A stretch of DNA of 43,897 nucleotides from positions 1-43,897 of the forward strand of contig CAYYND010000003.1 in assembly GCA_964472845.1 (NCBI GenBank), read 5' to 3'. The position numbers and the translations under genes were made by a program. The notes below the pieces were generated by a model. The model saw only the letters and a program-made list of their open reading frames with translations, did no database searches and had not been told where the DNA came from. This document shows, in pieces, positions 3,952 through 14,202 of the stretch. Each line of letters starts with the position of its first letter. Position 1 is the stretch's first letter. The DNA comes from an uncultured Lachnospiraceae bacterium. GTDB lineage: Bacteria > Bacillota > Clostridia > Oscillospirales > CAG-272.

Positions 3952-5181
3952 ATGAAAAAGGTGTTTGATATTTCAACTGAAAATATTGATATTCTTATGG
4001 ACAGGGTAAGATCCCATTACAAAAAATGTTTTATTGACAAGGGTGCCGACTCTCTCGGTGCGTTTGACTTTGACGGATATACCGTTTTTCCCGGTTTTTG
4101 CGATGTGCACGTGCATTTTCGTGAGCCGGGTTTTTCTTATAAAGAAACGATAAAAAGCGGTTCGCAAGCTGCGGCAAGGGGAGGATACACTACGGTGTGC
4201 ACGATGCCGAACCTTGATCCCGTTCCGGACACATATGACGCCATCAAGCTTCAAAAGGATATAATAGATCGAGATTCTTGTATACACATCTATCCTTACG
4301 CCGCCATAACGGTTGGCGAACGGGGAGAGCGTCTTTCGGATATGGAGGATATGGCGGATATTGCCGTTGCATATTCGGACGACGGAAGGGGCGTTCAGTC
4401 GGAGGATATGATGCGCAACGCTATGCGCAGAGCCAAAACGCTTGGCAAACTCGTCGTTGCACATTGCGAGGTGAACGATCTTTTGAAGGGCGGCTACATA
4501 CACGACGGTGAATATGCAAGAAGTCACGGTCACAGAGGAATTTGCTCCGAGAGTGAGTATCGCCAGATCGAAAGAGACATAAAGCTTGCGCAAGAAACGG
4601 GCTGTGCATATCACGTGTGTCACATTTCCGCAAAGGAAAGCGTAGATCTCATAAGACAGGCAAAGGCTGACGGAGTTGATATCACGTGTGAGACCGCACC
4701 GCACTACCTTGTTATGGACGAAAACGATCTTCGTGAGGACGGAAGATTTAAGATGAATCCGCCGCTCAGATCAAGCAGAGACAGAGAAGCACTCGTAGAT
4801 GGAATAAAGGACGGGACGATAGATATGATAGCTACCGACCACGCGCCTCATTCCGCCGAGGAAAAATCAAGAGGACTTGAAAAAAGCGCTTTTGGTATAG
4901 TTGGGATAGAGACGGCGTTTCCGGTAATGTATACGAAGCTCGTGCGAACGGGGATAATAGATATACAGAGGCTTATGGAGCTTATTGTCGCAAATCCGCG
5001 AAAGCGGTTCGGAATTCCTTATACAGATGACTTTTCGGTCTGGGACCTTGAGAAAAGCTTTAAGGTGGATCCGAAGGATCTTCTCTCCATGGGGAAGGCT
5101 ACACCATTTGAAGGCGAGACCTTGTACGGAGTCAATTTTCTAACGGTATGCGGTGGAAAGATCGCGTATAAGAAGGTGTGA
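3952..5181 (+). CDS. pyrC: Dihydroorotase
   Basis: 409 aa. Metal-binding DVHVHFREPG motif, an amidohydrolase fold pattern (ATDHAPH), and pyr operon context. Confidence 0.9.
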   Translation: MKKVFDISTENIDILMDRVRSHYKKCFIDKGADSLGAFDFDGYTVFPGFCDVHVHFREPGFSYKETIKSGSQAAARGGYTTVCTMPNLDPVPDTYDAIKLQKDIIDRDSCIHIYPYAAITVGERGERLSDMEDMADIAVAYSDDGRGVQSEDMMRNAMRRAKTLGKLVVAHCEVNDLLKGGYIHDGEYARSHGHRGICSESEYRQIERDIKLAQETGCAYHVCHISAKESVDLIRQAKADGVDITCETAPHYLVMDENDLREDGRFKMNPPLRSSRDREALVDGIKDGTIDMIATDHAPHSAEEKSRGLEKSAFGIVGIETAFPVMYTKLVRTGIIDIQRLMELIVANPRKRFGIPYTDDFSVWDLEKSFKVDPKDLLSMGKATPFEGETLYGVNFLTVCGGKIAYKKV

Positions 5182-5256
5182 GAACGAAAAAAGGAAGCAC
5201 TGGTTTATATAATAAATTACAAATTTATTTTTGGTATAATTTATCGGGAGGCAAGT

Positions 5257-8200
5257 ATGGCAAAAAGAAAAGATCTCAAAAAAATACTTATTATCGGCTC
5301 CGGTCCGATAGTTATCGGTCAGGCGGCGGAGTTTGACTATGCGGGAACGCAGGCGTGCCTGGCACTTAAGGAAGAGGGATACGAGGTCGTGCTCGTAAAC
5401 TCCAACCCCGCAACCATTATGACAGATACCACGATAGCGGATAAGGTGTATATGGAGCCTTTGACGCTTGAGTATATTGCAAAGATCCTTCGTTACGAAA
5501 GACCCGATGCAATAGTTCCGGGCATCGGCGGACAGACGGGGCTTAACCTTGCTATGCAGCTTGAAAAGAAGGGCGTGCTTAAAGAGTGCCACGTTGAGCT
5601 TCTCGGAACAAGCAGCGAAAGCATAGAAAGAGCGGAGGACAGAGAGCTTTTCAAAGAGCTTTGTCAATCGATCGGAGAGCCTACGATTCCGTCGGAGATA
5701 ACGTACAGTATAGATGAGGCCAAAGCGGCGGCACTCAGCATAGGATATCCCGTAGTACTTCGTCCCGCCTTCACGCTCGGCGGTACGGGCGGAGGTTTTG
5801 CAAACAATGAGGCTGAACTTATCGAGATCGGACTTAATGCCTTTAAACTCTCGCCCGTTCATCAGGTGCTTGTTGAAAAGAGTGTTAAAGGATATAAAGA
5901 GATCGAATTTGAGGTAATGCGCGACTCGAATGATAACGCTATTACTATCTGCGGTATGGAAAACGTCGATCCTGTCGGTATACATACAGGTGACTCGATA
6001 GTTGTAGCGCCTATACTTACACTTAACGATCACGATCTTAAAATGCTCAATGACAGCGCCATAAAGATAATAAGAGAGCTCAAGATCGAAGGCGGTTGCA
6101 ATGTACAGTTTGCATTAAATCCTCAAACAAGTGAATATTACCTTATTGAGGTAAATCCGCGAGTATCCAGATCGTCGGCTTTGGCTTCCAAGGCGAGCGG
6201 ATATCCGATAGCGAGGGTCACGGCTAAGATCGCGGTAGGTATGACGCTTGATGAGATCAAGATCGCCAACGCAACTGCAGCTATCGAGCCGAGACTCGAT
6301 TATATCGTTGCCAAATTTCCGCGTTTCCCGTTCGATAAATTCACGTCGGCATCAAATATACTCGGTACACAGATGAAAGCTACAGGCGAGGTTATGGGAA
6401 TCGGCTCCAATCTTGAAGAGTGCCTTTTGAAGTCGGTTCGCTCGCTTGAAACGGGAGTTTGCCACTTATATCTTGCAAAATTTGATAATATGTCCACCTC
6501 TGAGCTCTTAGATTATGTTAAAGAATTCAGATCCGACAACATATACGCGATAGCACAGCTTGTACGTATGGGCGTTTCTGTTGACGAGCTTTATGATGTC
6601 ACTATGATCACTCCGTATTTTCTTGAATCGATCAAAAAGATCGTTGATATGGAGAATGTGCTCAAAAATAATGTGAATGACATAAAGCTTCTCAAAGAGG
6701 CTAAGAAGATGGGCTTTGCGGATAAATTTATTGCCAAGCTTTGGGGTGTGTCTGAGTCCTGCGTTGCTTCCTTGAGAAAGCAAAACGGTATCGTTCCGGT
6801 ATTCAGAATGGTAGACACGCTTCACACGGGAGCGTACATTCCATATTTCTACTCGTCGTATACGGGAGAAAACGATTCTGTGATCACAAATAAGAAAAAA
6901 GCCGTCGTTCTCGGTGCGGGACCCATTCGTATAGGTCAGGGCGTTGAATTTGACTACTCCACAGTACACGCCGTAACTACGATCAAAAAATGCGGATATG
7001 AGGCTATAATCATCAACAACAATCCCGAGACCGTTTCAACCGACTACACTACAAGTGATAAGCTCTATTTTGAGCCTCTTACTCCCGAGGACGTAATGAA
7101 TATAGTTGATTTTGAAGATCCGGAGGGCGTTATCGCCTCTCTCGGAGGACAGACAGCAATCAATTTGGCTGAGCCTCTTATGAAACAGGGAGTAAAGATC
7201 ATAGGCACGGATTGCGAGGCTATCGATCGCGCGGAAAACCGTGATAGATTTGAAAAAATGCTCAAGGAACTCGGAATACCTCAGCCCGAGGGCAGAGCAG
7301 TGACCAAGATCGAGGACGGAGTGGAAGCGGCGAAGAAGATAGGTTATCCCGTGCTCGTTCGACCGAGCTTCGTACTTGGCGGACGTGCTATGCAGATCGT
7401 TGCAAATGAAGCTCAGCTCCGCCATTATCTGAAAACTGCGGTAGAGATCGACGAGGACAAGCCGGTGCTTGTAGATAAATATATCATCGGTAAAGAGGTT
7501 GAGGTGGACGCGATATGCGACGGTCGCGATGTGTTCGTTCCCGGAATTATGGAGCTCGTTGAGAGAACGGGTATACACTCGGGAGACTCGATAAGCGTTT
7601 ATCCTACCTTCAGTATATCCAACAAGGTCAAGGGAATTATTCTTCAGTACGCAAAGAAGCTCGGACTCGGTATAGGTATCGTCGGTCTTTACAATATTCA
7701 GTTTATTGTAGATCACGAAGAGCGCGTATACATTATCGAGGTCAACCCGCGTTCCTCCCGTACGGTTCCGTTCCTTTCAAAGGCTACGGGATACAGTCTT
7801 GCCGATATAGCGACAGAGGTCATTATGGGCAAGTCTCTTAAAGAGCAGGGAATATTCGATATCTATCCTAACGAGAAGAACAGATGGTATGTAAAGGTTC
7901 CCGTATTCTCTTTCAGTAAGATAAGAGGTCTGGACGCTTATCTTTCTCCCGAAATGAAATCAACGGGCGAGGCGATAGGCTATGACGACAGACTTAACCG
8001 TGCACTTTATAAAGCACTTCAGGCGTCGGGTATGCACCTGCAGAATTACGGTACGGTATTTGCAACGATCGCCGATAAGGATAAGGAGGAGGCACTGCCG
8101 CTGATCCGCCGTTTCTACGACCTCGGATTCAATATAGAAGCTACCGAGGGTACGGCGACATTCCTTAAGTGCAACGGTATACGTACTCATGTACTTCACA

Positions 8201-8430
8201 AGATAAGCGATGGAAGCGATGAGATATACGAATCCATCCGTCAGGGACATATCGCTTATGTTATAAACACGAGCGACATCGGATCCAATGATCACTTGAG
8301 TGACGGATATAAGATCCGCAAATATGCTACCGAATGTAATGTTACTATGTTTACGTCTCTTGATACTGTTAAGGTGCTTCTTGATGTACTTGATGAGACC
8401 ACACTTCGTATCTCGACGATAGATTCATAA
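5257..8430 (+). CDS. carB: Carbamoyl-phosphate synthase large subunit
   Basis: 1057 aa. Two ATP-grasp halves (IIGSGPIVIGQAAEFDYAG... and VLGAGPIRIGQGVEFDY...) and a C-terminal MGS-like domain. Confidence 0.95.
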   Translation: MAKRKDLKKILIIGSGPIVIGQAAEFDYAGTQACLALKEEGYEVVLVNSNPATIMTDTTIADKVYMEPLTLEYIAKILRYERPDAIVPGIGGQTGLNLAMQLEKKGVLKECHVELLGTSSESIERAEDRELFKELCQSIGEPTIPSEITYSIDEAKAAALSIGYPVVLRPAFTLGGTGGGFANNEAELIEIGLNAFKLSPVHQVLVEKSVKGYKEIEFEVMRDSNDNAITICGMENVDPVGIHTGDSIVVAPILTLNDHDLKMLNDSAIKIIRELKIEGGCNVQFALNPQTSEYYLIEVNPRVSRSSALASKASGYPIARVTAKIAVGMTLDEIKIANATAAIEPRLDYIVAKFPRFPFDKFTSASNILGTQMKATGEVMGIGSNLEECLLKSVRSLETGVCHLYLAKFDNMSTSELLDYVKEFRSDNIYAIAQLVRMGVSVDELYDVTMITPYFLESIKKIVDMENVLKNNVNDIKLLKEAKKMGFADKFIAKLWGVSESCVASLRKQNGIVPVFRMVDTLHTGAYIPYFYSSYTGENDSVITNKKKAVVLGAGPIRIGQGVEFDYSTVHAVTTIKKCGYEAIIINNNPETVSTDYTTSDKLYFEPLTPEDVMNIVDFEDPEGVIASLGGQTAINLAEPLMKQGVKIIGTDCEAIDRAENRDRFEKMLKELGIPQPEGRAVTKIEDGVEAAKKIGYPVLVRPSFVLGGRAMQIVANEAQLRHYLKTAVEIDEDKPVLVDKYIIGKEVEVDAICDGRDVFVPGIMELVERTGIHSGDSISVYPTFSISNKVKGIILQYAKKLGLGIGIVGLYNIQFIVDHEERVYIIEVNPRSSRTVPFLSKATGYSLADIATEVIMGKSLKEQGIFDIYPNEKNRWYVKVPVFSFSKIRGLDAYLSPEMKSTGEAIGYDDRLNRALYKALQASGMHLQNYGTVFATIADKDKEEALPLIRRFYDLGFNIEATEGTATFLKCNGIRTHVLHKISDGSDEIYESIRQGHIAYVINTSDIGSNDHLSDGYKIRKYATECNVTMFTSLDTVKVLLDVLDETTLRISTIDS

Positions 8431-8447
8431 GCAGGACGGAGAACGGT

Positions 8448-9182
8448 ATGAAGCAAGTTGTATTTAAAATAAAAGAAAATCTTCCGCTGACGGAGAATGT
8501 CTATAAAATGATCCTCTCGGGCGATACGGGTGATATTACGTGCCCGGGGCAGTTTGTGAATATCAAGCTTGACGGTTTTTTCCTTCGCAGACCGATATCG
8601 GTATGCGATGTTCGCGGTGATGAGCTGACGATAATATATAAAGTGGTAGGCAAAGGCACCGAGGCTATGAAAGATATGAAATACGGCGAGCTTGACGTTC
8701 TTACGGGACTCGGAAACGGATATGAGCTTTCGGAATCGGGAGACAAGCCCTTGCTCATCGGCGGAGGTGTCGGCGTTCCACCTATGTATCTGCTTGCCAG
8801 GAGGCTTATATCCGAAGGAAAGCGGGTATCGGTCATACTCGGCTTTAATACCCAAAACGAGGTATTTTACGAGAATGAATTTAAGGCACTCGGAGCGAAG
8901 GTATATGTAACTACCGTTGACGGTTCGTACGGAATAAAGGGCTTTGTTACCGAGGCGATGCGCAACATTGAATATACATATTTCTACACCTGCGGTCCCG
9001 AGCCTATGCTGAAGGCGGTGTGCGGCGCATCTTCTTCGAGCGGTCAGCTCAGCTTTGAGGAGCGAATGGGTTGCGGCTTCGGCGCTTGTATGGGATGCTC
9101 GTGTAAAACCCTTACGGGTAACAAAAGGATCTGCAAGGACGGTCCCGTTCTTCGCAAGGAGGAAATAATATGGCAGAAATGA
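8448..9182 (+). CDS. pyrK: Dihydroorotate dehydrogenase B electron-transfer subunit
   Basis: 244 aa. FAD/NAD-binding fold (RRPISV) and a C-terminal 2Fe-2S motif CGFGACMGCSC. Overlaps the pyrD start. Confidence 0.9.
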   Translation: MKQVVFKIKENLPLTENVYKMILSGDTGDITCPGQFVNIKLDGFFLRRPISVCDVRGDELTIIYKVVGKGTEAMKDMKYGELDVLTGLGNGYELSESGDKPLLIGGGVGVPPMYLLARRLISEGKRVSVILGFNTQNEVFYENEFKALGAKVYVTTVDGSYGIKGFVTEAMRNIEYTYFYTCGPEPMLKAVCGASSSSGQLSFEERMGCGFGACMGCSCKTLTGNKRICKDGPVLRKEEIIWQK

Positions 9183-10081
9183 AGGTCGAGCTGTGCGGTA
9201 TAGAGCTTGATAACCCAATAATTCCGGCAAGTGGGACTTTCGGATACGGTTATGAGTTTGCAGAGCTTTATGATATAAATATTCTCGGAACCTTTTCTTT
9301 CAAGGGAACGACCAGGGATGCTCGTTTCGGCAATCCTACGCCGAGGATAGCCGAATGTACTTCAGGTATGATAAATGCCGTGGGACTTCAAAATCCGGGC
9401 GTGGATAAGGTGATATCCGAGGAGCTTCCGAAGCTTTCAAAATGTTTTCATAAGAAGGTTATGGCAAATGTAAGCGGCTTTTCGGTCGAAGATTACGCCT
9501 ATACCTGCGAGCGACTCGATAAATGCGATCAGGTGGGATGGCTTGAGGTAAACGTAAGCTGTCCGAACGTTCACGGAGGAGGTATGAGCTTTGGCACGTC
9601 TCCCGAGGCGGCAGCCGAGGTTACGAAAGCTGTCAAGGCGGTAACAAAAAAGCCTGTATTTATAAAGCTTTCACCGAATGTTACAGATATAGTGTCGATA
9701 GCCAAAGCCTGCGAGGATGCAGGGGCTGACGGTATAAGCCTTATAAACACACTGCTCGGTATGAGGATAGATCTGCGTACGAGAAGACCCGTTATCGCGA
9801 ATAAAATGGGCGGATTTTCCGGAAGCGCGATCTTTCCCGTAGCTTTGAGGATGGTATATCAGGTGTCTTGCGCGGTGAACATTCCCGTAATAGGTATGGG
9901 AGGAGTCTCAAGCGCTGAGGATGTTATAGAGATGATGCTTGCGGGTGCTACTGCGGTTGAGATCGGCGCGGCAAACCTTGTCGACCCGTTTGTATGCAAG
10001 GATATCATCGAGCAGTTACCGAGGGTAATGGAAAAATATAAGATAAATTCACTTAGAGAAATAATAGGAGGAGTAAACTGA
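9170..10081 (+). CDS. pyrD: Dihydroorotate dehydrogenase B catalytic subunit
   Basis: 303 aa. Class 1B DHOD sequence (NPIIPASGTFGYG...NAVGLQNPG...NVSCPN). GGAGG RBS. Confidence 0.9.
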   Translation: MAEMKVELCGIELDNPIIPASGTFGYGYEFAELYDINILGTFSFKGTTRDARFGNPTPRIAECTSGMINAVGLQNPGVDKVISEELPKLSKCFHKKVMANVSGFSVEDYAYTCERLDKCDQVGWLEVNVSCPNVHGGGMSFGTSPEAAAEVTKAVKAVTKKPVFIKLSPNVTDIVSIAKACEDAGADGISLINTLLGMRIDLRTRRPVIANKMGGFSGSAIFPVALRMVYQVSCAVNIPVIGMGGVSSAEDVIEMMLAGATAVEIGAANLVDPFVCKDIIEQLPRVMEKYKINSLREIIGGVN

Positions 10082-10779
10082 TGGGAAGAGATGTCATAAT
10101 TGCTTGTGATTTCGACAGTGCCGAAAGAACATTTGCGTTTCTTGATAAATTCACGGGCAAAAAGCCGTTTGTAAAGATAGGTATGGAGCTTTATTATGCT
10201 GAAGGACCTTCAATAGTGAGAGAGATAAAGGCGAGAGGTCACAAGATATTTCTTGATCTTAAGCTTCATGATATTCCGAATACGGTAAAAAAGTCAATGG
10301 CAGTGCTCTCAAGACTTGACGTTGATATGTGTAACCTTCACGCAGGCGGCACCGTTAGAATGATGGAAGCGGCTATTGAGGGACTTACTCGCGAGGACGG
10401 CACGAGACCCTTGCTTATTGCGGTAACTCAGCTGACCTCTACCGATCAGGAGAGTATGGAAAATGATCTGCTCATAAAGGAGCCGATAGATAAAGTAGTT
10501 ATGCACTATGCTTCCAATGCAAAGAAAGCCGGGCTCGACGGCGTCGTATGCTCGCCGCTTGAGGCAGGAAAAGTTCACTCGATCTGCGGAGATGACTTTA
10601 TTACGGTAACTCCGGGAGTAAGATTTGCTGACGGAGATGTTGGGGATCAGAAGCGTGTTATGACGCCTGCTGAGGCTAAAAGGATCGGATCCGACTATAT
10701 CGTTGTCGGCAGACCGATAACGGCTGCGGAGGATCCCGTTTCGGCATACGAAAGATGCGTCAGAGAGTTTGTTGACTGA
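10081..10779 (+). CDS. pyrF: Orotidine 5'-phosphate decarboxylase
   Basis: 232 aa. DLKLHDIPNT motif. TGATG start/stop overlap with pyrD. Confidence 0.9.
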   Translation: MGRDVIIACDFDSAERTFAFLDKFTGKKPFVKIGMELYYAEGPSIVREIKARGHKIFLDLKLHDIPNTVKKSMAVLSRLDVDMCNLHAGGTVRMMEAAIEGLTREDGTRPLLIAVTQLTSTDQESMENDLLIKEPIDKVVMHYASNAKKAGLDGVVCSPLEAGKVHSICGDDFITVTPGVRFADGDVGDQKRVMTPAEAKRIGSDYIVVGRPITAAEDPVSAYERCVREFVD

Positions 10780-10822
10780 TGCAGATCAAAAGCAAAACGT
10801 CGAATATATAAGGAGAGTTAAA

Positions 10823-11479
10823 ATGGAAGGGTACAAAAGAGAGTTTATTGAATTTTTGCAGGGAGCCGGTGTCTTGAAATTCGGAGATTTTACAGCAAAG
10901 AGCGGAAGAAAGATCCCCTATTTTATTAACGCAGGCGACATAAAAACAGGCGATCAGATTGCAAAGCTCGGTGAGTTTTACGCAAAAAGCTATCTTGAAA
11001 AGGTAGGAAACAAAAGAGCGGTTCTTTACGGCCCCGCCTACAAGGGTATTCCGATAGCCGTTTCGGCAGCAGTTGCGTTGGCTAAGAACGAACTTGATGT
11101 TCCTTTCTTCTTCAACCGTAAGGAAGAGAAGGATCACGGAGAGGGCGGCATATTCGTAGGCTATGTTCCGAAGTCGGGCGAGGAGATCGTCATTGTTGAG
11201 GATGTTATCACTGCAGGTACCGCCATACGCGAGAGTATGTCAAATCTTCAAAGACTTGACGGCACTAAAGTTGCCGCGACCTTCGTTATGGTAGACAGAA
11301 AAGAGAAGGGCAAGGGTGAGAAGAGCGCTATGGCTGAGATCGAAGAAGAATACGGATTTCCCGTTTATTCCGTTGTCGATGTTTATGATATCATCGAATA
11401 TCTCGAGGAAGACCCTGCTAATAAAGAAAATGTTGACAGAATAAAGAATTATCTTGCGGTAAACGGAGCAAAGGCGTAA
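10823..11479 (+). CDS. pyrE: Orotate phosphoribosyltransferase
   Basis: PRPP-binding motif IVIVEDVITAGTA. I prefer ATG 10823 (MEGYKREFIEF) because AAGGAGAG lies 5-6 nt upstream. The ORF track extends to 10769. Confidence 0.9.
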   Translation: MEGYKREFIEFLQGAGVLKFGDFTAKSGRKIPYFINAGDIKTGDQIAKLGEFYAKSYLEKVGNKRAVLYGPAYKGIPIAVSAAVALAKNELDVPFFFNRKEEKDHGEGGIFVGYVPKSGEEIVIVEDVITAGTAIRESMSNLQRLDGTKVAATFVMVDRKEKGKGEKSAMAEIEEEYGFPVYSVVDVYDIIEYLEEDPANKENVDRIKNYLAVNGAKA

Positions 11480-11501
11480 ATCTTATTTAAGGAGATAAAA
11501 G

Positions 11502-12599
11502 ATGAGAAGCGTTATAGATATTTTGGATCTTACGACGGAAGAGATAGACAGACTTTTGAGCGTAGCAAATGATATTATAGCACACCCCGAAAAATACGCC
11601 GAGGCGTGCCACGGTAAAAAGCTTGCTACTCTTTTCTTTGAACCCTCGACGAGAACGAGACTGAGCTTTGAGGCTGCAATGCTTGAACTTGGCGGATCTG
11701 TCATAGGATTTTCTTCGGCACAGACCTCCTCGGCATCAAAGGGTGAAAGCGTAGCGGATACTTCTAAGGTAATAAGCTGTTATGCGGATATAATCGCTAT
11801 GCGTCACCCCAAAGAGGGCGCTCCGTTTGTTGCGTCGCAAAATGCGTCGATCCCCGTTATAAATGCGGGCGACGGCGGACATTGTCATCCGACGCAAACG
11901 CTGGCAGATCTTTTGACGATACAGAGAGAAAAAGGCAGGCTTCACGACCTTACCGTCGGCTTTTGCGGAGACCTTAAATACGGCAGGACCGTACATTCAC
12001 TCATTTCCGCGCTTTCCAGATACGAAAATATACGTATAGTATTGATCTCTCCCGATGAGCTCAAGCTTCCGAGCTATATCAAAAATGACGTTATGATAAA
12101 GAATAATATGGAATATATACAGACAACCGAGCTTGAAGAGGTAATGCCCGAGCTTGATATTCTTTATATGACTCGTGTTCAGGGAGAAAGATTTGCAAGC
12201 AACGACGAGTATTTAAGACTTCGTGATAGCTATATTCTGACACCGGACAAGCTTAAGAACGCAAAATCCGATCTTGCCATCCTTCATCCGCTTCCGAGAG
12301 TAAATGAAATAAGCGTGAAAATAGATGACGATCCCCGAGCTTGCTATTTTAAGCAGGTATCAAACGGAAAATATATGAGAATGGCACTCATACTCAAGCT
12401 TCTTGATGAGGCAAAGAACCCCGAAAGGAAAAAAGCCGATCATACGGGCAGTGAATATGTAGTCAATAAGCTCAAATGTCGTAACCCGAGGTGTATTACT
12501 ACGGTGGAGCAGGAGCTTGATCAGATCTTTCACGTTACGGATGCCTCTGAAGGGGTATGCAGATGTATTTATTGCGAATCTAAAGAATATATAAAATAA
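11502..12599 (+). CDS. pyrB: Aspartate carbamoyltransferase catalytic chain fused to a PyrI-type zinc domain
   Basis: 365 aa. ATCase motifs STRTR, HPTQ and HPLPR lie within residues 1-302. Residues about 318-365 (KCRNPRCIT...[11 protein letters not shown]) match the Cx4C...Cx2C zinc domain of the regulatory chain. Confidence 0.9.
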
Positions 12600-12648: not shown

Positions 12649-13425
12649 ATGTGGGATCAAACAACAGAAAAGATTGGTGTTACAGGTCACAGAGGCTGTA
12701 AGGCATATATGCCCGAAAATACGCTTATGTCGTTTTCGGAGTCGTTTAAACTCGGTATCGACGTACTGGAGTTTGATGTTCAGCTTACGCTTGACGATGT
12801 TGTCATCGTAATGCACGATACGACCGTCGATCGTACTACCGACGGAAAGGGCGCCGTTTGTTTCAAAACGCTCGCCGAGATGAAAGCACTTGACGCAGGT
12901 GTTAAATTCGGATATCCGGGTGCCCGTGTGCCTACTCTGGATGAAACGCTTCAGCTCATCGTTGATGAGGCAGACAGCAATATGCTGCTCAATGTTGAGA
13001 TAAAGGATCAGACACCTCGCGTTATCGATAAGACGATCGAAGCGCTCCGCCGTTTTGGACTTGTGGAGCGTACCGTTATCGCAAGCTTTGATGCTCAAAC
13101 CTTGCTTTACGTTCAGAAATATTATCCGGAGTTCAAGACTCAGGGTCAACCTCCCGTTTGTATGAAGAGATACGATGAGAGCGTGCTTGACAAGATGTAC
13201 GGCATGGGAGTTCCGATGGATTCGTCCAAACTTCCTACCGATGAAGATATTTTTGAGGTGGTAAAGCTTGCAAACGATCACGGTATTCAAGCTTGGGGAT
13301 ATCATGCTGATAACCGCGAGGCGGCGGAAAGAGCTATGAAATACGGCTTTACCAATATAACCGCTAACGATCCGCGCGAGCTTATCGCTTATCTCGATGA
13401 GATCGGCAGACGTGTAGGCAAATGA
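12649..13425 (+). CDS. Glycerophosphodiester phosphodiesterase family protein
   Basis: 258 aa. GDPD motifs GHRG...PENTLMSF...LEFDVQLTLDDVVIVMHDTTVDRTTDGKG. Confidence 0.85.
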   Translation: MWDQTTEKIGVTGHRGCKAYMPENTLMSFSESFKLGIDVLEFDVQLTLDDVVIVMHDTTVDRTTDGKGAVCFKTLAEMKALDAGVKFGYPGARVPTLDETLQLIVDEADSNMLLNVEIKDQTPRVIDKTIEALRRFGLVERTVIASFDAQTLLYVQKYYPEFKTQGQPPVCMKRYDESVLDKMYGMGVPMDSSKLPTDEDIFEVVKLANDHGIQAWGYHADNREAAERAMKYGFTNITANDPRELIAYLDEIGRRVGK

Positions 13426-13461
13426 TTGTATCGTAAGGATCGGACGATCGATATGATATAT

Positions 13462-13510
13462 AAAAGCAAATATGCCGTTGTACCCTTGCGGTCTCGACAT
13501 ATTTGCTTTT
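13462..13510 (+). terminator. Hairpin terminator after the GDPD gene
   Basis: AAAAGCAAATATG (13462-13474) pairs with CATATTTGCTTTT (13498-13510), followed by TTAT. The loop is 23 nt. Confidence 0.5.
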
Positions 13511-13545
13511 TATCTTTCGGCTTTGTAAATATTCAGGGCATAATA

Positions 13546-13574
13546 TTGACAAATCGACGATATAATGATATCAT
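13546..13574 (+). promoter_or_regulatory. Sigma-A type promoter for the HD-domain gene
   Basis: TTGACA (13546-13551), a 17-nt spacer ending in TGa, then TATCAT (13569-13574). Confidence 0.5.
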
Positions 13575-13617
13575 TATACGATGGATCGATCATAAACAAC
13601 AGATAGGAGAGATAAAG

Positions 13618-14202
13618 GTGCAACCGAAGGAATTTATAACATTTATGAATGTTATCGAAAAGCTAAAGTGCAATACAAGACATTCTTGGACGTCGAGCGG
13701 ACGTCACGAGAGCGTTGCAGAACATTCTTGGCGGCTTGCGGTAATGGCGTTGCTTTGCTCTGATGAATATCCCGAGCTCGATATGGACAAGGTAATAAAA
13801 ATGTGTCTCATACACGATCTCGGAGAGGCGATAACGGGGGATATACCGTCATTCAACAAGACCGAGGAGGACGAAAGAACAGAGGACAAGGCAATAGAAC
13901 AGCTTATGAGCCTTTTGCCGGAGCACTATTCCGAAGAGCTTTCAAGGCTCTTTGATGAGATGAGGGAAAGACAGACTTCGGAGGCTAAACTTTTCAAAGC
14001 ACTTGATAATATGGAGGCAGTAATCTCTCATAATGAAGCGGATATATCAAGCTGGATCCCGTTTGAATACTCGGAAAATCTTGTATACGGACAGGATGCT
14101 GCCGCATGGTCTGATTGGACAAGAAGACTCAGAGCGCAGCTCAAAGAGGATAGCCTGTCAAAGATAGAGCGAGCCCAAAAGCAAAACGGTCAAAAAGAAT
14201 AA
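13618..14202 (+). CDS. HD-domain phosphohydrolase (YfbR-like 5'-nucleotidase family)
   Basis: H...HD...D pattern (ESVAEHSWRLAVMALL, IHDLGEAITGDIP). I prefer the GTG start at 13618, which lies behind an AGGAGAG RBS. The longer ORF from 13426 would run through the terminator and promoter. Confidence 0.75.
   Translation: MQPKEFITFMNVIEKLKCNTRHSWTSSGRHESVAEHSWRLAVMALLCSDEYPELDMDKVIKMCLIHDLGEAITGDIPSFNKTEEDERTEDKAIEQLMSLLPEHYSEELSRLFDEMRERQTSEAKLFKALDNMEAVISHNEADISSWIPFEYSENLVYGQDAAAWSDWTRRLRAQLKEDSLSKIERAQKQNGQKE

Follow-up and report, generated by a model that had tools for sequence, protein, structure and literature searches.

Aspartate carbamoyltransferase (ATCase) is a classic model of allostery, and its regulatory chain PyrI has two jobs in it: the zinc domain docks onto the catalytic chain PyrB, and the N-terminal domain senses nucleotides and dimerises. 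Can nature separate these two jobs, and what would an enzyme look like that kept the docking half alone? This question is raised by a pyrB gene on a stretch of 43,897 nucleotides (contig CAYYND010000003.1, positions 1 to 43,897 of the forward strand; hereafter the window) from assembly GCA_964472845.1 of an uncultured Lachnospiraceae bacterium, placed by GTDB in Bacteria; Bacillota; Clostridia; Oscillospirales; CAG-272. A first-pass annotation, made from the letters alone, had described its product as PyrB fused to the zinc domain of PyrI without the nucleotide-binding allosteric domain. The analysis presented here bears this description out, with a significant match to the zinc-domain model and none to the allosteric one. 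The gene, referred to below as pyrB-Zn, likely encodes a real, conserved single-chain ATCase, in which the zinc domain would dock in cis and which would assemble into a (c-Zn)3 trimer free of PyrI-type nucleotide control.

The pyrB-Zn gene encodes a complete catalytic chain and the zinc domain of PyrI

The open reading frame of pyrB-Zn (11502..12599, on the plus strand like all features described here) runs from an ATG at 11502 to the stop codon TAA at 12597-12599 and encodes 365 residues. The protein matches TIGR00670, the equivalog model for ATCase in NCBIfam, with 345.9 bits against a cut-off of 236.95. Its catalytic part is made up of a carbamoyl-phosphate-binding domain (PF02729, OTCace_N, 163 bits; residues 2-141, 11505..11924), which carries STRTR at residues 49-53, and an aspartate-binding domain (PF00185, OTCace, 97.6 bits; residues 149-298, 11946..12395), which carries HPLPR at residues 262-266. 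Across 73 fused sequences the active-site residues S49-R53, R101, H129/Q132, R162, R225/Q227 and H262-R266 are invariant; they represent the active-site motifs of ATCases, namely STRTR, the arginine that follows the 100s strand, HxxPTQ, the R-x-Q in the 230s region and HPLPR. The catalytic chain ends at residue 302, the D of ...MALILKLLD, where the first-pass annotation had placed its end, and residues 303-365 (nucleotides 12408-12596) read exactly as quoted there.

The tail of 63 residues opens with a linker (residues 303-319, 12408..12458), variable in sequence, which comprises the end of the PyrB C-terminal helix and a remnant of the PyrI inter-domain linker. It is followed by a PyrI_C zinc domain (PF02748; residues 320-361, 12459..12584), found with 44 bits in a scan of the genome, with 40.5 bits in the whole protein and with 44.6 bits in the tail alone, the gathering score being 23.4. 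The first cysteine pair, C326-x4-C331 with N328 in between (12477..12494), is encoded by TGT at 12477-12479 and TGT at 12492-12494, and the second pair, C355-x2-C358 followed by E359 (12564..12575), by TGT at 12564-12566 and TGC at 12573-12575. No match to PF01948, the PyrI allosteric domain, was found in the protein with Pfam. Models of full-length PyrI are matched far below their cut-offs (TIGR00240, 22.5 versus 148.55 bits; NF002063, 43.6 versus 171 bits) and at profile positions 87-140 only, which is the C-terminal third of PyrI; in NF002063, a model of 142 positions, residues 311-361 align to positions 87-137. Likewise, NF009916, which describes the Thermotoga-type fused PyrB/PyrI, scores 121.2 bits against a cut-off of 800 and is matched by the catalytic part alone.

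When a profile built from 33 fused tails was compared with the Protein Data Bank (PDB), the solved chains that it matched were exclusively PyrI chains, and always in the zinc domain (residues 103-144 of the E. coli chain). In this comparison C326, C331, C355 and C358 align with the cysteine pairs of E. coli PyrI, as had been proposed by eye for the Cx4C and Cx2C pairs, N328 aligns with the asparagine between the cysteines of the first pair and E359 with the glutamate after the second pair. The product of pyrB-Zn is thus a complete ATCase catalytic chain followed by a linker and a Cys4 zinc domain, and it lacks the allosteric domain.

No separate pyrI accompanies the fused gene

The source genome is a metagenome-assembled genome (MAG) of 1.71 Mb in 142 contigs, 77% complete. 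Within it, the only gene with a PF02748 match over the cut-off is pyrB-Zn, and no separate pyrI was found, which extends to the assembled genome what the first-pass annotation had noted for the operon. The sole PF01948 match, on contig C67, reaches 15.6 bits against a cut-off of 25, and we rejected it as a pyrI candidate; the gene product reads, by eye only, as ribosomal protein L9. The same absence holds in more complete assemblies, as PF01948 was missing at E<=0.01 from all ten fused genomes that were checked, which are 95-100% complete.

A sequencing or assembly frameshift that merged pyrB with a full-length pyrI has virtually no chance of explaining the fusion. No reading of the frame contains allosteric-domain sequence. 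Several independent contigs, recorded in Logan, ENA and NCBI, encode the very same 365-residue protein, and the architecture is common to dozens of species: all 120 listed homologues (71-100% identity, 359-383 residues) carry PF02729, PF00185 and PF02748, and so do 22 of the 30 best clusters in the ESM Atlas (at least 50 members each), which belong to Bacillota wherever the phylum is known. An artefact of this kind, which had been named as a way in which the annotation could fail, is refuted by the shared architecture, the repeated contigs and the lack of any allosteric-domain remnant.

The fusion occurs throughout the family and beyond it

In order to establish how widely the layout occurs, as the first-pass annotation had proposed, we surveyed 121 genomes of the same GTDB family, including the source MAG. 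Of these, 94 encode an ATCase that scores above the TIGR00670 cut-off, 89 have PF02748 and 50 have PF01948. Each of the 50 PF01948-bearing genomes contains PF02748 as well, in frames of about 140-240 residues that correspond to an ordinary pyrI, and 39 genomes have PF02748 in frames of 323-434 residues and no PF01948, which is the fusion. Seven ATCase-positive genomes without a PF02748 match at E<=0.001 were fetched and inspected. Six of these encode a C-terminal Cx4C...Cx2C tail, too diverged for Pfam, on a catalytic chain of the HPLPK type; the seventh, G082, has an ATCase of another type, with an HPGP motif in a frame of 319 residues and no tail. The 94 ATCase-bearing genomes therefore divide into 45 with the zinc-only fusion, 48 with canonical pyrB and pyrI, and one with the other type. 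In two further genomes (G062 and G069) pyrI is present and pyrB is missing or cut off.

The fusion is also found outside the family. In a sample of the class, 194 of 401 genomes contain PF02748, mostly in ordinary pyrI genes. About 150 of the 196 matches were listed, and ten genomes with low scores or long frames were chosen from them, so that the sample gives occurrences and not a class-wide count; eight of the ten encode the PyrB-Zn fusion, and these represent six further families. The other two (G518 and G305) have matches below the cut-off, which are presumed to be spurious. A homologue search with residues 303-365 alone returned 29 candidates and is not usable as a census.

The fused ATCases include a second subfamily that has diverged further (L085-L089, L094 and L095, from genomes G001, G044, G054, G068, G085, G030 and G050), with HPLPK in place of HPLPR and the tail motif CxNPRC(I/V)(T/S)..E.YLP...CxYC, which lies mostly at or below the Pfam threshold for PyrI_C. 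Some unusual occurrences of the PyrI domains were noted as well. Second PyrI_C matches over the cut-off lie about 2-2.5 kb downstream of an ordinary pyrI in two genomes (G031:C35:17035-17145, 43 bits, in a frame of 59 residues; G369:C182:12772-12903, 55 bits, in a frame of 106 residues) and may be stand-alone zinc-domain mini-genes. A metagenomic protein of 203 residues, P0125, carries PF01948, PF00072 (a response-regulator receiver) and PF02748 in its precomputed Pfam annotation and would, if real, be an odd variant of PyrI.

ATCase itself is unevenly distributed in the family. A TIGR00670 match at E<=1e-40 is absent from 24 of the 121 genomes, and genomes with neither PyrI domain seem to lack ATCase altogether (five of five checked). 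One of these five is G042, the sole other genome of the window's genus (85% complete, 10 contigs), in which there is no ATCase and no PyrI_C match. Given these ATCase-less genomes, de novo pyrimidine synthesis seems to have been gained or lost often in this family.

The allosteric domain was most likely lost from a pyrB-pyrI pair

The first-pass annotation had left it open whether the allosteric domain was lost or had never been there. A pattern scan of one genome per species yielded 80 loci, 37 of which are fused (358-370 residues) and 42 split into pyrB and pyrI, the remaining one being ended by a contig end. In the split loci pyrB encodes 303-308 residues and pyrI, counted from the first in-frame start, 137-164, mostly 137-143, and in most of these loci the two genes overlap as ATGA. 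In PyrB, the split relatives share 76-81% identity with the window; their pyrB-pyrI pair lies directly behind pyrE, as the fused gene does, and the zinc domains of their PyrI resemble the tail encoded in the window. Furthermore, according to the NF002063 alignment, the fused tail keeps about ten residues of the PyrI inter-domain linker. An in-frame deletion in an ordinary pyrB-pyrI pair that removed the pyrB stop codon together with roughly residues 1-86 of PyrI would produce this arrangement. Because close relatives have overlapping pyrB and pyrI genes at the same position of the operon, the sequence comparison makes it most likely that the fusion arose by loss of the allosteric domain from such a pair. 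Thus, of the two histories, the split relatives and the retained linker residues favour loss and not an ancestral absence; the fusion would then be a derived state, and the suggestion that it represents an evolutionary intermediate is therefore unlikely to be correct.

Phylogenetic trees of PyrB were calculated in order to follow this transition, using a quick maximum-likelihood search and midpoint rooting only. The tree of 81 rows implies three changes of state between fused and split. In an approximately unbiased (AU) test, a single clade of all 38 fused rows is not rejected (p 0.468, delta lnL 4.07), and when the zinc-domain columns are added, with locus L077, which is cut by a contig end, excluded, the tree that holds the fused forms together gains 27.3 lnL over the quick free search (p-AU 0.78). 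We therefore dropped the claim of recurrent independent deletions, since the AU test does not speak against a single fused clade and the zinc-domain columns favour one. One pyrB/pyrI pair in the set, L065, comes from a contig labelled Bacteroides faecis and nests among Acutalibacteraceae, which is probably an error of binning or labelling.

The zinc domain of the fused forms is conserved

A domain left behind by a deletion might be a functionless remnant in decay, and the conservation of the tail bears directly on this. In the 73 fused sequences C326, C331, C355, C358, N328 and E336 are invariant, and I332, Q337, E338, L339, F343, R354 and Y357 nearly so; all 35 full-length fused sequences have the Cys4 pattern. 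Compared pair by pair, these 35 sequences show a median identity of 74% for PyrB, 53% for the zinc domain and 17% for the linker. The fused proteins end 4-15 residues past the last cysteine. As synonymous divergence (dS) is saturated in most of 67 pairs and renders region-wise ratios unreliable, we relied on amino-acid identity and on a single unsaturated pair (L005/L006), for which the ratio of nonsynonymous to synonymous divergence (dN/dS) amounts to 0.054 for PyrB and to 0.058 for the zinc domain.

Some features of the tails do look like erosion. Fused zinc domains score lower on PF02748 (20.9-46 bits) than canonical ones (47-61 bits), six of the 45 fused forms of the family miss an E-value of 0.001 for PyrI_C, and the fused forms differ among themselves at several positions that canonical PyrI keeps fixed. 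The lower scores and this variation could reflect a partly relaxed constraint; the fused set is also the more diverse one. The segment just before the first cysteine is near-fixed in 42 canonical PyrI sequences and variable in the fused forms, which would fit a release from contacts with the lost domain, with the same proviso as to diversity. A decaying, functionless remnant is nevertheless extremely unlikely. Decay is hard to reconcile with four cysteines, N328 and E336 that are invariant in 73 sequences, with a Cys4 pattern kept in the diverged tails of the HPLPK type and in six other families, and with a zinc domain that is 53% identical next to a linker that is 17% identical. A truncated tail was seen in none of the fused sequences, and in the family sample the zinc domain is absent only from G082 with its other type of ATCase.

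Structure prediction places the zinc domain on the catalytic chain

To visualize how the tail could be arranged, we predicted the structure of the monomer with AlphaFold2 from the 73-row alignment. The model (predicted local distance difference test, pLDDT, 90.8; predicted template modelling score, pTM, 0.90; pLDDT of the tail 84-91) places the zinc domain with confidence against the body of its own chain. A Foldseek search of the PDB with this model returned catalytic chains with at most 313 aligned columns, among them 3csu_C (E 6e-34, target-normalised TM-score 0.94, root-mean-square deviation 1.4 over 302 columns), and no solved chain that covers the fusion. When residues 1-305 and 314-365 were supplied as separate chains, the predicted complex reached an ipSAE of 0.84, the best of three controls reaching 0.00; the mark applied to this score is reached by 116 of 157 solved complexes and by 2 of 215 mismatched pairs. 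At least 97% of the contacts are common to the runs, and the partner pLDDT is at least 87.

The predicted interface comprises residues 83-85, 102-107, 109-110, 124-127 and 192 on the catalytic side and residues 328, 330-332, 334-337, 339, 356-359 and 361 on the side of the zinc domain. Counted by the offset from the conserved motifs, catalytic residues 124-127 correspond to the 130s loop of the E. coli enzyme, and in the 33-tail profile N328, R330 and E359 align with N111r, N113r and E142r of E. coli. A preprint on the latter enzyme places these three residues in a hydrogen-bond network with the region of catalytic R167 and the 130s loop (10.1101/662718). Both correspondences together suggest that the predicted docking is canonical in kind, as judged by matching residues. 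The zinc domain would accordingly pack in cis against the carbamoyl-phosphate domain of the chain that carries it, on the surface around residues 102-110 and the loop 124-127, the latter being the equivalent of the 130s loop on which the PyrI zinc domain is seated in the holoenzyme. The proposal that the structural clamp is kept in cis thus agrees with the models.

Assembly and regulation of the fused enzyme

What would such a chain assemble into, and how would it be controlled? In the E. coli enzyme, regulatory chains pair through their nucleotide-binding domains, and every zinc domain attaches to one catalytic subunit (PMC11601545). With the domain missing that binds CTP, UTP, ATP or GTP and dimerises, there would be no regulatory dimers to join two trimers and no known nucleotide site, and it is because of this missing domain that we favour a (c-Zn)3 trimer without nucleotide control of the PyrI type. 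The expected product would show hyperbolic kinetics and no response to CTP or ATP, and both a new quaternary arrangement and a loss of nucleotide allostery, the outcomes originally suggested for this gene, are plausible on the sequence evidence. Retention of the zinc domain would be explained if the catalytic chain in this lineage depended on it for its stability, or for the active conformation of the 130s loop and active site. Such a role is probable, because among the 94 ATCases of the family sample that of G082, an enzyme of another type, is alone in having no zinc domain.

A number of points weigh against this reading. To the lower PF02748 scores of the fused forms and their variation at positions fixed in canonical PyrI must be added the source MAG, which is 77% complete. 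No biochemistry of any member was found in the literature, and what is said here of zinc, oligomeric state, kinetics and the response to nucleotides is deduced. Catalytic trimers of E. coli are stable and active without PyrI, so that a stabilising role is not self-evident. The good score of the predicted complex may reflect the memory of solved ATCase holoenzymes and would then speak for likeness and not for binding. The identification of the predicted site with the canonical c1-r1 site draws on residue correspondence and on the interface residues of the E. coli enzyme, and within a trimer the docking may be in trans rather than in cis.

The zinc domain might also touch a second trimer and so hold together a higher-order assembly, for example a (c-Zn)6 hexamer, with cooperativity but without nucleotide control. 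At 46% identity, the catalytic chain belongs to the class-B type of E. coli, and the E. coli zinc domain contacts chains of both trimers, with an r1-c4 contact in the T state; its strong conservation here would fit a role beyond simple stabilisation. In addition, an engineered E. coli enzyme without regulatory subunits can reportedly be cooperative. In E. coli, however, the trimers are linked through regulatory dimers of the nucleotide-binding domains (PMC11601545), which are absent here, and our models, which contain at most two chains, give no sign of contact with a second trimer. On balance we hold a hexamer to be unlikely.

Feedback regulation could alternatively have been kept in another form, with the zinc domain serving as a docking adaptor for a different sensor that acts in trans in place of the PyrI allosteric domain. 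This is very unlikely, considering that PF01948 occurs in none of the 39 Pfam-recognised fused genomes of the family and, at E<=0.01, in none of the ten near-complete fused genomes, that no gene is conserved downstream of the fused gene (the commonest downstream neighbour is found in 8 of 38 loci), and that the protein ends 4-15 residues after its last cysteine.

A bolder and unlikely possibility is that class-B catalytic chains need the zinc domain of PyrI as an autonomous module, irrespective of nucleotide sensing, and that this module does more than stabilise in these anaerobes. It could do so either as a link between trimers that confers cooperativity without heterotropic control, or as a redox or zinc switch, built on the Cys4 site, that acts on the 130s loop and the active site. 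If true, a textbook enzyme would turn out to be regulated on a new principle. For the single-chain trimer that we favour, the consequence would be that pyrimidine synthesis in these abundant gut anaerobes runs outside the textbook control by CTP and ATP.

Genomic context of pyrB-Zn

The fused gene is the last of a pyr operon with the order pyrC-carB-pyrK-pyrD-pyrF-pyrE-pyrB-Zn (3952-12599), the upstream genes of which were assigned with Pfam: pyrC (3952-5181), carB (5257-8430), pyrK (8448-9182), pyrD (9170-10081), pyrF (10081-10779) and, immediately upstream of pyrB-Zn, pyrE (10769-11479), all on the plus strand. A Shine-Dalgarno-like AGGAG (11490..11494) is located 7 nucleotides 5' of the ATG of pyrB-Zn. 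Among 38 fused loci, pyrD, pyrF and pyrE likewise precede the fused gene in 27-37. No carA, encoding the small subunit of carbamoyl-phosphate synthase, lies beside carB in the operon of the window (3952-11479). Directly 3' of pyrB-Zn, at 12649-14202, a glycerophosphodiester phosphodiesterase (GDPD) and an HD-domain YfbR-like 5'-deoxynucleotidase are encoded, a pair that is not conserved downstream of other fused genes. A search of the whole window with Rfam found no family at its gathering score and hence no known pyr leader.

Comparison with known ATCases

The zinc-only layout is conserved and visible in precomputed Pfam annotation, and it has apparently not been studied. We found no description of a zinc-only PyrB-PyrI fusion in the literature, and a 2015 review of the family names regulatory chains as separate subunits or as full fusions, beside bare trimers, and no other layout (PMC4581275). 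Because public annotation names these proteins just 'aspartate carbamoyltransferase', the difference has gone unnoticed in metabolic reconstructions. In these bacteria, nature has separated the two jobs of the regulatory chain: in a large clostridial family of gut and rumen, roughly every second genome with an ATCase keeps the docking half alone, fused and under clear constraint. The contribution that the zinc domain itself makes to the catalytic chain thereby becomes a directly testable question.

Among the known systems, the class B holoenzyme of E. coli and archaea (PyrB6-PyrI6, 2 c3 : 3 r2) shares the type of catalytic chain with pyrB-Zn (46-50% identity; target-normalised TM-score of at least 0.9 to the E. 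coli and Pyrococcus chains) as well as the Cys4 zinc domain, which is predicted to dock on the corresponding surface. In contrast to this holoenzyme, pyrB-Zn has no nucleotide-binding and dimerisation domain, and would therefore form no regulatory dimers and offer no known nucleotide site, and its zinc domain is attached covalently to the catalytic C-terminus instead of residing on a separate subunit. The fused PyrB-PyrI of Thermotoga maritima (NF009916, 525 positions) resembles it in carrying catalytic and regulatory parts on one polypeptide, but keeps the whole of PyrI including the allosteric domain, whereas pyrB-Zn has no PF01948; the Thermotoga enzyme is said, in work by Chen et al. from 1998, to be allosteric. 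Class C ATCases of the Bacillus subtilis type, which are catalytic trimers only, are like the expected product in being trimers without nucleotide-binding subunits, yet they have no zinc domain and are of another sequence type, of which G082 is one example in the family. A laboratory counterpart of the predicted pyrB-Zn trimer exists as well. Markby, Zhou and Schachman, writing in PNAS in 1991, reportedly combined the E. coli catalytic trimer with an isolated 70-residue zinc domain of PyrI and observed tight binding and altered kinetics without cooperativity. That complex, too, consists of three catalytic chains and three zinc domains without allosteric domains; it is man-made, non-covalent and derived from E. 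coli, whereas pyrB-Zn is natural, covalent and conserved in many Clostridia.

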